Assembly: GCA_016188205.1 (NCBI GenBank)
Contig: JACPIG010000061.1
Location: 1-32,845, forward strand
DNA length: 32,845 nt
Origin: Candidatus Woesearchaeota archaeon
GTDB lineage: Archaea; Nanobdellota; Nanobdellia; Woesearchaeales; UBA10216
Reading direction: 5' to 3'
The position numbers were made by a program, and so were the translations under genes. The notes beneath the pieces were generated by a model that did not search any database, was not told where the DNA came from, and saw only the letters and a list, made by a program, of their open reading frames with translations. How positions within the stretch are numbered: position 1 is the first letter of the stretch; each line of letters starts with the position of its first letter. Shown here one piece after another: positions 5,101-7,325 of the stretch.

Positions 5101-6120
5101 TTATCCAAGCCCAACTCCAACTCCTCCTGAAGCGGCTGCTCCAACTCCTCCCGAAGCTCCTGCTCCAGCCTCTCCGGAAGCTCTCACTCTAACTCCTCCG
5201 GAAGAATCTGCGTTCCCGGAACCGGCTGATGCAACTGTACTTGCGCCTGCCCCATTTTCCCCGGGTCTGGCAACAATTCTTGTTCCCATTTCCACAGACG
5301 TTACGACGCCTGTTTCTGCCTCTACCCGGACCTCGTAGCTTTTCTCAAGCTCGTAAGCACCTGCGCTCTCAGTCCTGCTTCCTGTCACGACATAATAAGT
5401 CGTGTTGCCCCTGGCCTCGGTGCTGACATTTGATGCTTTGAAGCGCATATCCTTCTCAACCATCTCTTTCGCTTCTTCCTCAGTCAGCCCGCCATTGCCT
5501 TCTCCTTTTGCCTCCAGCCTTATCAGAGAGCCCAGCTCGCCTTCCAGGTTAAGCCCGTGCGCAACTTCAGACCTCTCTATCGCTTCTGCGCTTTCATCTG
5601 CCTCGCGTTCAAGCTCCGCATCACCCTCTGCCTTTGCCTTCAGCTGCAGCTTTCTCAGCTGAGCGGTTGCCTTCAGGTGCTCCCTTATTATTGCCCTGTG
5701 CTCTTCCTGGAATGCCTTTATCGCTTCCTTCTTCTCCCCAGAGCTCATGCTGCTGTTGCTGAAGTTTCCGAGCAACCCTGCTTTCAGCTCAAGCCATGCC
5801 TTCTGCCTTTCCCTGAGCTTCTCATTCCTTTCCTTCAAAAGCTCCAGCTTTGCCTTCTTATCAAACGCCAGAACTGACCTGACATTGAAGACAAAGTCGC
5901 CAAATGCCTCGCCTACCATTCTCAGCCTCAGGCCTTTCCCAGCCTTTGCAGTCTCACTTGCACTTGCACCCGCACTTGCCTGCACACCTGCCTGCGAGCC
6001 TGCATGCGCTGATGGCACTGCCTGCCCTTCTGCCTGTACTGACTGCTCTGCTGCAATGGCAGGCACTGCAAAAACCATCACAGCCACAAGCAGCGCAACC
6101 AGCTGCTTTACATTCGCCAT
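5101..6120 (-). CDS. Secreted coiled-coil protein with a PepSY-like C-terminal module and a G/A/S-rich tail; paralog-like to 3692..4885
   Basis: Start trimmed to the ATG at 6120, which is preceded by GGAGGTGG. Signal peptide is MANVKQLVALLVAVMVFAVPAIAAEQ. A helical K/E-rich middle is followed by LTEEEAKEMVEKDMRFK...TYYVVTG...YEVRVEAETGVVTSVE (PepSY-like by eye). Confidence 0.65.
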   Translation of the reverse strand: MANVKQLVALLVAVMVFAVPAIAAEQSVQAEGQAVPSAHAGSQAGVQASAGASASETAKAGKGLRLRMVGEAFGDFVFNVRSVLAFDKKAKLELLKERNEKLRERQKAWLELKAGLLGNFSNSSMSSGEKKEAIKAFQEEHRAIIREHLKATAQLRKLQLKAKAEGDAELEREADESAEAIERSEVAHGLNLEGELGSLIRLEAKGEGNGGLTEEEAKEMVEKDMRFKASNVSTEARGNTTYYVVTGSRTESAGAYELEKSYEVRVEAETGVVTSVEMGTRIVARPGENGAGASTVASAGSGNADSSGGVRVRASGEAGAGASGGVGAAASGGVGVGLG

Positions 6121-6317
6121 ACAAACCACCTCCGTCTTGTTTTGCATTTCGTTTTGCATTTCGCTTTTTGTTTTCAAATCAAACCGCTGCAATTTCTTTG
6201 CAACACCCCATAGTATGTTGTTTCAACTATTACTTTTGTACGTGAAACAATTGTGAAACAATATAGAAACAGCAGAAAAAGCGCTTATGGTTGTTTAGAT
6301 ACTGCCTGTTCAACGTG

Positions 6318-6412
6318 AGCTGACCGTGGTCTTACCAGACTGATTTTCTCTCCCCCACGGTAAGCGAGGGGGAGAGAAAATCACCTGAGCGTTAGCTCAG
6401 GCACGGTCAGCT
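6318..6412. ncRNA. 95-nt perfectly paired four-way-junction (cloverleaf-topology) element; candidate structured RNA or MITE-like DNA palindrome
   Basis: Closing stem 6318-6328 / 6402-6412 (11 bp). Hairpin gtct-tacc-agac at 6329-6340. A 15-bp hairpin 6342-6356 / 6368-6382 with an 11-nt loop. A 7-bp hairpin cctgagc-gtta-gctcagg at 6384-6401. Linkers are 0-1 nt and every pair is Watson-Crick. Confidence 0.35.
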
Positions 6413-6455
6413 TGTCCCACACGAAAACCAAACAGTATCAATTTATCATTGTTGC

Positions 6456-7325
6456 CTATTTCAGCCAGAATAGCTTATTTGTTCTGCCCTGTGCATCCTT
6501 CCTGATAAGCCCCTTATTCTCCAAAACCCTGACAATCCTTGTTGCCTTAGCCCTTGAGAACTGAAGCTCCTTCTGCATATCTCTCTGCACACAGACCTTT
6601 CTCTTCTGGAGATAAAGCACAGCCCTCTTCTCGTCCTCCCTGAAACCAGTAAGGAAGGAATCTTTTGCCTTATTCCTGAAGTTTGCGAACATCATAAAAA
6701 TAATTCCCGTAGCCACGGCTGCAAAAACAGCTGCAGCAAAAAGCCAGAGCCCGCTTTCCACCCCCCCTCCGGCGAACTTGACAGAAAAAAGCGCCTGGTC
6801 AATATCCAGAAGTTCCCAGCCGAGAATAATCCTCCTGCCGTCAGAAAAGATGCCTGCGCCGTAAGGCCTGTAAGAGTCCTGATAAATAGCGTATCCCTCC
6901 GGAAGCTTCACTTTTGCATCAAGCTGCGCCACAGGGCTGCCAAACCTCAGCTCTGTGAAGAAGTGGCTTACAGAGCCACTCTGGAAAACCATGCGGTCAG
7001 AAACATAGGAAATTGTAAGGTTTCTCGTCCCTTCCGGCACTGAAACGTGAAGCACGTATTTGCCATCGCTGCCTGAAATCCCATGCACAAGCTGCTGCTC
7101 ACCAGCCACTGCATTTACGTCCCTGACTTCTTCACCAAGCGTATAATTAAGAACCCCAGAAACAGGGCTGCTGAAATAATAGCTTGTTTCCTGCCTGACA
7201 GAGTAATCGGGCTGGATGTCAAACTCAACGCTTACTGACTCAATTCTTTCCTCTGCTCTTAAAGGCGCGGCAAGCAGAAGCGCGCAGACTGTGAGCATCA
7301 GCACAATTATCAGCACTTTCCCCAT
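6456..7325 (-). CDS. Membrane-anchored transcriptional regulator (extracellular domain, one TM, cytoplasmic MarR-like wHTH)
   Basis: Start trimmed to the ATG at 7325, about 26 nt downstream of the TATA at 7348-7355. Signal sequence is MGKVLIIVLMLTVCALLLAAPLRA and the TM is LWLFAAAVFAAVATGIIFMMF. The C-terminal wHTH-like region is EDEKRAVLYLQKRKVCVQRDMQKELQFSRAKATRIVRVLENKGLIRKDAQGRTNKLFWLK. Confidence 0.7.
   Translation of the reverse strand: MGKVLIIVLMLTVCALLLAAPLRAEERIESVSVEFDIQPDYSVRQETSYYFSSPVSGVLNYTLGEEVRDVNAVAGEQQLVHGISGSDGKYVLHVSVPEGTRNLTISYVSDRMVFQSGSVSHFFTELRFGSPVAQLDAKVKLPEGYAIYQDSYRPYGAGIFSDGRRIILGWELLDIDQALFSVKFAGGGVESGLWLFAAAVFAAVATGIIFMMFANFRNKAKDSFLTGFREDEKRAVLYLQKRKVCVQRDMQKELQFSRAKATRIVRVLENKGLIRKDAQGRTNKLFWLK

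Follow-up and report, generated by a model that had tools for sequence, protein, structure and literature searches.

Why a spacer between two genes should hold a perfectly base-paired cloverleaf is the question raised by positions 6318-6412 of the window, i.e., the whole 32,845-nt stretch analysed here, which belongs to contig JACPIG010000061.1 (label C105) of a Candidatus Woesearchaeota archaeon genome (label G000). All coordinates given without a contig label are positions in this window. Reading of the sequence and folding gave a closed four-helix junction with 37 Watson-Crick pairs and no mismatch. This is the fold of the original prediction, with its 11-bp closing stem and its hairpins of 4, 15 and 7 bp, apart from the 1-nt unpaired linkers that had been assumed: T6341 and A6383 in fact pair together, leaving the junction without any unpaired nucleotide. 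The same prediction hesitated between a DNA-level palindrome, such as a miniature inverted-repeat transposable element (MITE), and a very young RNA element. Taking all the data as a whole, the best explanation is that the segment of about 150 bp from approximately 6289 to 6439 is very probably a copy of a MITE, that is, of a non-autonomous DNA transposon without genes.

Copies, ends and empty sites of the element

The predicted free energy of the 155 nt from 6296 to 6450 was -78.7 kcal/mol on the plus strand (shuffled sequences, -36.8 +/- 3.8; z = -11.2) and -84.7 kcal/mol on the minus strand (shuffled sequences, -42.6; z = -11.6), and none of 200 shuffles folded as well in either case. The junction is enclosed by two arms, GATACTGCCTGTTCAACGTG (6298-6317) and CACACGAAAACCAAACAGTATC (ending at 6439), which are imperfect complements, match at about 15 of 20 positions and both contain CGTG; the complementarity goes on outward, more weakly, to about 6287 and 6449. 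The imperfect inverted flanks with GATACTG (6298-6304 in the left arm) and CGTG (6314-6317) that had been predicted were thus confirmed as complementary arms. In an alignment the right end at 6439 lines up with the termini ...TTGCC/...TAACC of three other copies (C32, G112:C74 and G112:C20). The left arm would start near 6289 (GGTTG...), with an uncertain boundary; the arms of the closest copies, which are found in genome G112, begin GGGTTAAG. No open reading frame runs through the core (6318-6412), and one 50-aa frame (6412-6564, plus strand) begins in the right arm and is mostly antisense to the neighbouring winged helix-turn-helix (wHTH) gene. ARAGORN identified no tRNA or tmRNA gene in the window, and the search of both strands against Rfam 15 gave no match at the gathering score.

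The presence of multiple copies, by which a MITE could be recognised, was evident: ten dispersed copies on nine contigs were found in the window's own genome (1.06 Mb in 128 contigs, 84% complete; Table 1). A covariance model built from the alignment of the nine full copies detected the family in 20 of the 25 other genomes of the same taxonomic family, with 1-15 copies each and in eight further genera, and gave no match in 35 other families of the order, represented by one genome each. When 150 genomes were drawn more widely from the order, three of the 149 genomes outside the family were positive, and these belong to three other families. Genome G112, from another family of the order, carries about 20 copies that are very near in sequence to those of the window's genome. 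The window core itself is nearest to C32 and C35 (83-86% identical) and to the G112 copies sharing its closing stem. In several G112 copies (e.g., L132, L137 and L138) the closing stem AGCTGACCGTG is identical and the central stem near-identical to those of the window copy, a likeness which suggests that the MITE has passed horizontally from one co-occurring lineage to another.

The hallmarks of transposition were found in the relatives, where the four-way junction is the core of an element of about 142-175 bp bounded by terminal inverted repeats of 20-26 bp, of the types GGCGTTATTGAAAAGTTC, GGTAAAGTCAAGT and GGCTCTGTAGAAAGTC; the shortest clear repeats measured 16 bp. Four copies in G016 have the ends GGYGTTATTGAAAAGTTCAT.../...ATGAACTTTTCAATGTGACC and the direct repeats ATGCAAT[T/C], CAGAAAAA, TTCAGGCA and CATTGCTT, and the direct repeats CATAAATC, GGTGGCTT, CAGGCTCA and GCAGTGCT were found in G003, G008 and G012. 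A strict test (inverted repeats identical, without gaps, at 9/16 positions or more, together with an 8-bp duplication with at most one mismatch) was passed by 16 of 66 copies (24%), against 20 of 1304 (1.5%) when left and right flanks of different copies were paired. In the unambiguous cases the duplication is of 8 bp, not 9. The identical copies lying at four contig ends of G003 are as expected of a recently active repeat that breaks the assembly. In addition, the orthologous spacers between the wHTH gene and the gene of a coiled-coil secreted protein are syntenic and lack the element in two related genera (131 nt in G013 and 91 nt in G004), the window spacer being about 335 nt long; it follows that the element was inserted within this lineage. 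Dispersed copies, terminal repeats with 8-bp duplications in relatives, empty orthologous spacers and the lack of any Rfam or tRNA match all support the DNA-level palindrome of MITE type that had been put forward.

An intergenic repeat that is rich in hairpins and conserves its structure could also be a repetitive extragenic palindrome (REP) or REP doublet forming a hairpin (REPIN), moved by a REP-associated tyrosine transposase (RAYT, of the Y1 type), or an attC-like single-strand recombination site, and Y1 transposase genes are present in the taxonomic family. REPIN and REP sequences, the latter also when grouped in bacterial interspersed mosaic elements (BIME), resemble the element in being palindromic intergenic repeats located after genes, in the compensatory changes of their stems and in a possible role at the 3' end of mRNAs. 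However, this explanation is scarcely credible, since neither REPINs nor attC sites make the 8-bp duplications and 20-bp terminal repeats present here, and the control with shuffled flanks (1.5% against 24%) makes chance duplications unlikely. REPs depend on RAYT, whereas the element has no association with Y1 transposases: Y1_Tnp was found in only 7 of 26 genomes and did not track the element, being present in the element-free G001, G010 and G013 and absent from the copy-rich G003, G011, G016, G019 and G000. Integron attC sites are imperfect hairpins that need extrahelical bases and are accompanied by gene cassettes and an IntI integrase; the element has neither such bases nor bulges, and it has transposon ends.

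Two further observations were made on copies of the window's genome. The degenerate copy of contig C13 keeps the central hairpin and the right half but has lost the left half; it overlaps the first codons of a 957-aa frame (C13:1336-4209, minus strand), and the gene may in fact begin further downstream. Contigs C26 (25580-25774) and C50 (5501-5695) have in common a 195-bp unit with 99.5% identity, composed of the MITE and about 40 nt past its right end including a TTTATAA box, and the two loci differ within the left terminal repeat. The unit resembles the outcome of a recombination that copied a MITE along with the adjacent promoter, and not of a clean transposition.

Conservation of the four-way fold

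Among the copies of the window's genome only the central hairpin keeps its sequence, and it is also the most conserved part across the family. Its 15-bp stem (6342-6356/6368-6382) has a pyrimidine-rich 5' arm and a purine-rich 3' arm, and the 11-nt apical loop adds two further C-G pairs. The closing stem and both side arms vary yet stay paired. The closing stem of the window copy recurs in C32, G112:C173 and G112:C20 and is replaced in other copies by a different sequence in which the pairing is kept, and the C32 counterpart of the CC...GG arm shows compensatory changes (CCCAAGC/GCTTGGG). When the nine full copies were aligned with plain MAFFT, standard pairs were present in 97% of the cells against 76% in column shuffles, none of 500 shuffles reaching the observed value. 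Changes on both sides affected 26 of the 39 pairs, and pairing fell to 35-51% in a control in which the partners were slid by 1-3 columns.

The same architecture was recovered in the relatives. Seventy copies, 65 of them distinct in sequence, were extracted from 21 genomes including the window's own, and 60 of the distinct copies could be parsed into a closing stem of 8-11 bp (usually AGCC.../...GGCT), a central hairpin of 13-17 bp with a pyrimidine-rich 5' arm, and two side arms, one GT...AC and one CC...GG; one GT...AC-type arm was present in 49 of the 60. A family that spans at least eight genera, and whose stems have been extensively replaced by compensatory changes, does not agree with the very young RNA element considered in the original prediction.

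Forty-nine copies could be oriented through their two distinguishable side arms, independently of pairing quality. Among about 2080 pairs, 60 G·T wobbles were found on the oriented strand and 52 on the opposite one. Since a fold selected in RNA would be expected to accept G·U pairs on its own strand but not on the opposite one, this symmetry argues against the RNA reading and extends to the oriented copies the earlier argument that the absence of G-U pairs points to DNA. The central loop, for its part, lies one way round relative to the side arms in C105, C26a, C26b, C50, C91 and C99 and is reverse-complemented in C32, C35 and C114 (three of the nine full copies), and in G008 the flip is confined to the inner CG-GTAAG-CG mini-hairpin. 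The inversion of a loop within a perfect inverted repeat is a DNA-level event, due to hairpin-mediated template switching or recombination. From stem covariation, wobble symmetry and flipped loops it follows that the four-way fold is maintained at the DNA level rather than in one RNA strand.

These data also bear on the possibility that the family is a multi-copy gene for a structured small RNA, tRNA-like or of another noncoding type. The very strong covariation, which implies a defined fold, and the conservation of the architecture across genera would agree with it. However, no tRNA was found by ARAGORN in the window and no Rfam family was matched, G·U is no commoner on either strand, the sole conserved loop occurs both ways round, and the copies have transposon ends and target duplications. 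A small RNA gene is thus highly improbable, and the position of the promoters, given below, is also against it.

The presumed duplications of three copies have decayed, with differences at 9 of 25 positions; in the stems of these copies only about 5% of pairs are not of Watson-Crick type, roughly a third being the neutral expectation. This hints at upkeep of the stems after insertion, an argument that rests on uncertain boundaries. The element consists of two diverged inverted arms around a 95-bp nested palindrome, and either DNA strand folds to the four-helix junction. The fold might be kept for the spread of the element, e.g., through an extrusion joining the two ends of the 150-bp element or as a structure recognised by a protein. 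Alternatively or additionally, template switching in the hairpins could copy one arm onto the other, giving rise to "compensatory" changes and loop flips without selection, or the host could keep an orientation-independent structure placed after its genes. The three ideas, conjectural as they are, do not exclude each other.

Target sites and candidate transposase

The surroundings of 16 clean copies were aligned at the outer edge of the duplication, a strong TATA box being defined by at least 7/8 matches to TTTAWATA. The box starts exactly 6 nt past the duplication, on one side, in 10 of the 16 copies, and within 4-7 nt in 12, whereas every other offset from 0 to 59 nt occurred at most twice. 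The 6-nt spacer is rich in purines and A and resembles the B recognition element (BRE), and the ATG of the outward-reading gene is located about 23 nt past the TATA box, 45 nt from the element edge in five cases. This spacing of TATA box and ATG implies insertion at the upstream edge of the core promoter of a leaderless gene. At the other side of the clean copies, the stop codon of the incoming gene is usually -3 to +26 nt away. The spacing is also kept where about 50-220 nt of spacer are free (L045, L053, L059, L078 and L062) and so is not explained only by survivorship in a compact genome. Of the copies in the window's own genome, C114, C99 and C32 conform to the rule; for C35, C26a and C26b the agreement is approximate. 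All these results suggest that integration is targeted to the upstream border of core promoters in archaea. The orientation of the element relative to the adjacent gene and promoter is random (6 against 7), and the clean copies have no inward promoter, the adjacent TATA box driving the outward gene; both facts count against a small RNA gene.

The TATA rule was likewise followed by five of five copies of an IS5-family element and five of five copies of a second MITE family. The latter, present in the window's own genome (Table 1), is about 185 bp long, has GGYGAAGTCAAGTT (GGYGAAGTCAAGTTAAGTG) ends and 9-bp duplications, and inserts 5 nt plus the duplication away from TATA boxes; its core is a different nested palindrome, in which a long GTGCAAGCAACAACAATG stem encloses GC-rich hairpins. 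That this targeting is shared by the MITE, an insertion sequence and a second MITE family is further evidence for the same kind of transposase.

DDE_Tnp_1 transposases were identified in 13 of the 26 genomes. One group of them corresponds, in relatives, to an insertion sequence of about 890-905 bp encoding a protein of 278-284 aa, which gave 150.6 bits against the IS5-family model NF033579 (cut-off 140). The ends of this element are GGCTCTGTTGAAAATCT / GGCATAGTTGAAAATCT, GGCTCTGTAGAAAGTC / GGCTTAGTAGAAAAAGTC and GGCTGAGGTGAAAGTC, and the pattern GGC-N3-(A/G)T(T/A)GAAAA is common to them and to the commonest MITE end. Moreover, in G086 and G112 there are four-way-junction cores flanked by GGCTGTGTAGAAAAAGTC and GGCTCTGTAGAAAGTCTC, which are the insertion sequence's own ends. 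Judging from these ends, the MITE is most likely moved in trans by the transposase of this IS903-like element of about 900 bp. IS903, a member of the IS5 family, has 18-bp ends (GGCTTTGTTGAATAAATC) and 9-bp duplications. The element of the relatives is similar to the IS903 group in its match to NF033579, its ends (GGCTCTGTTGAAAATCT) and its 9-bp duplications; unlike that group, the four-way-junction MITEs duplicate 8 bp. To our knowledge, promoter-edge targeting is not a property of IS903.

Other candidate partners were discarded. The ISL3 fragments of G008 and G017 have unrelated ends (GGCTCTTCTCC...), as do the other DDE_Tnp_1 elements (327-399-aa transposases), no IS1595 was found, and IS256 gave one weak match only. 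Next to the "solo" terminal-repeat copies of G012, G016 and G008 there was no transposase, only housekeeping genes and truncated or variant MITEs. Independently of the MITE, the IS5-family element (L098:69-963, L113, L109, L107, L106 and L097; G020, G019, G003, G016 and G012) was seen to carry two hairpins between its left end and the ATG of the transposase. They co-vary between sub-types, and the second stops directly in front of the start codon; the pair resembles a conserved leader structure that might control translation of the transposase.

Several observations weigh against a MITE at 6289-6439 that was mobilised by such a partner. No recognisable target duplication was detected for the window copy with several boundary choices, its diverged arms of GATACTG type have no second copy in its own genome, and the nearest TATA-like box (6262-6269, minus strand) is about 20 nt from the inferred left end, not 14. 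With regard to the partner, the duplications of the IS5-family element are of 9 bp (GTTTTGGGC, AAACCGATA, GATAGGGGG and CTTATAAGC) and those of the MITE of 8 bp. The MITE core gave no similarity to the interior of that element, either with the covariance model with filters off or with blastn-short. Finally, no IS5-type transposase was found in the window's own genome nor in 9 of the 20 other MITE-carrying genomes, all of which are incomplete metagenome assemblies in which repeats break contigs. The arms of the window copy (GATACTGCCTG.../GATACTGTTTG...) are more like each other than like the ends of any other copy. This copy has the general placement of the family, i.e., stop codon, element and next promoter, but blurred boundaries. 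It is probably an older or divergent copy that is immobile, its immobility being deduced from the lack of a visible IS5-type transposase in a genome that is 84% complete.

The placement would also suit a module retained by the host as a 3'-end protector, terminator or insulator against read-through, in the manner of enterobacterial REP and BIME sequences; such exaptation would add to a MITE origin and not replace it. The clean copies stand between an incoming stop codon and an outward promoter, and in the window a stop codon lies 17 nt from the right arm. Furthermore, the fold is equally good on both strands, so that orientation would be irrelevant, and the three copies with decayed duplications keep their stems. 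However, targeted integration by itself explains the placement, the wobbles show no strand bias although one strand is transcribed at each site, and the decayed duplications depend on the boundaries already mentioned. In addition, transcription in archaea is terminated through oligo-T and aCPSF1 and not through hairpins. Retention by the host is considered unlikely.

With a MITE origin preferred, the proposed system would operate as follows. The IS5-family transposase would move the MITE in trans, and integration would be aimed at promoters, the duplicated target lying 6 nt (the BRE position) upstream of the TATA box, between a stop codon and the next promoter. It is conceivable, though rather doubtful, that the junction is a required cis-acting DNA structure of such a promoter-targeting transposon system, with the transposase perhaps guided by a promoter bent by the TATA-binding protein (TBP) and transcription factor B (TFB), and with a role of the junction in synapsis by extrusion or as a host insulator.

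Locus features, related systems and significance

Both genes flanking the element are on the minus strand. As stated in the original prediction, the element lies downstream of the wHTH stop codon and upstream of the 6120 start. The wHTH membrane-protein gene ends with its stop codon at 6456-6458; for the coiled-coil gene the ATG at 6120, which begins a signal peptide, is a likelier start than the TTG at 6192. Between these two starts, a 12-nt tandem repeat (TTTGCATTTCGT-like) at 6136-6171 would be translated as MQNEMQNK; it is less likely to be coding than to be a repetitive 5' leader. At 6240-6269, on the minus strand, the TATA-like box TTTCTATA of the coiled-coil gene is directly followed by the direct repeat GTTTCAC-AATT-GTTTCAC. 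The arrangement GTTTCAC-N4-GTTTCAC is kept in the orthologous spacers (L116:1350-1500 and L117:1396-1506) of G013 (GTTTCATAATGTTTCAC) and G004 (GTTTCACAATAGTTTCAC). The repeat probably serves as an operator, and the protein acting on it could be the neighbouring membrane-anchored wHTH protein. The parts of the element and the copies of both MITE families are listed in Table 1.

Table 1. Parts of the element in the window and copies of the two MITE families in the same genome
Feature	Location	Strand	Basis
Left arm (diverged terminal inverted repeat and spacer)	6289..6317	.	Complementarity to right arm
Closing stem, 5' half, AGCTGACCGTG	6318..6328	.	Pairs with 6402-6412, 11 bp
GT...AC side arm, GTCT-TACC-AGAC	6329..6340	.	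4-bp hairpin in fold
Central hairpin, T+GATTTTCTCTCCCCC / GGGGGAGAGAAAATC+A, loop ACGGTAAGCGA	6341..6383	.	Fold
CC...GG side arm, CCTGAGC-GTTA-GCTCAGG	6384..6401	.	7-bp hairpin in fold
Closing stem, 3' half, CACGGTCAGCT	6402..6412	.	Fold
Right arm (diverged terminal inverted repeat), ends ...CAGTATC	6413..6439	.	Complementarity to left arm
Family copy (window copy)	C105:6318-6412
Family copy	C26:31680-31778
Family copy	C26:25636-25736
Family copy	C50:5533-5633
Family copy	C114:360-458
Family copy	C91:1413-1511
Family copy	C99:10362-10462
Family copy	C32:1007-1100
Family copy	C35:6320-6413
Family copy, degenerate	C13:4052-4154
Second MITE family	C95:5644-5826
Second MITE family	C98:3662-3846
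Second MITE family	C107:2699-2882
Second MITE family	C56: about 1630-1816	minus
Second MITE family	C62:3883-4141

Prokaryotic MITEs with structured cores (Correia/NEMIS of Neisseria, ERIC/IRU, RUP and bcr1, and those of Sulfolobus and haloarchaea) are alike in being small (about 150 bp), non-coding, multi-copy and intergenic, and in having terminal repeats, duplications, a transposase (here a candidate) acting in trans and a stable secondary structure. Unlike in those MITEs, the interior here is a separate four-helix junction, neither folded-back ends nor a deletion derivative of the IS5-family insertion sequence. The helices, their lengths and the pairs flanking the junction are conserved across sub-families with different ends through strand-symmetric compensation, and the distance between the insertion and the archaeal TATA box is fixed. 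Such a distance is reminiscent of Ty3, which is directed to RNA polymerase III start sites by TFIIIB, a factor that includes TBP and Brf1 (the homologue of TFB), and of Tf1, which uses polymerase II promoters. Both integrate at a fixed short distance from the core promoter and leave the promoter and neighbouring genes intact. However, Ty3 and Tf1 are retroelements with integrases, whereas a DDE insertion sequence and a MITE are involved here, and the targeting cue would be either the DNA sequence or bound TBP/TFB.

A full-text literature search gave no description of this family or of TATA-proximal targeting. This includes a bulk census that reported a high MITE density in a Woesearchaeota genome (PMC11602168), and a survey of archaeal insertion sequences describes neither of them (PMC13343696). 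New in the present analysis are the 8-bp duplication, the link to the IS5-family element, the strand-symmetry test and the TATA-spacing rule.

By itself the element of the window is an ordinary remnant of mobile DNA, and the wider interest lies in two properties of its family. The first is that a perfect junction is kept while ends and stems turn over, which points to either a requirement for a DNA structure or a self-correcting mutational process; we know of no description of such a requirement or process for prokaryotic MITEs. The second is the targeting of promoter edges, which would explain how transposons persist in genomes of about 1 Mb with 50-nt spacers. If the proposed system is true, this would be the first described family of promoter-edge-targeted DNA transposons in Archaea with a structure-dependent core. 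The TATA-spacing rule would mark promoters bioinformatically in uncultivated DPANN archaea, and the system would allow one to test whether a transposase is targeted by TBP/TFB or by the TATA sequence.

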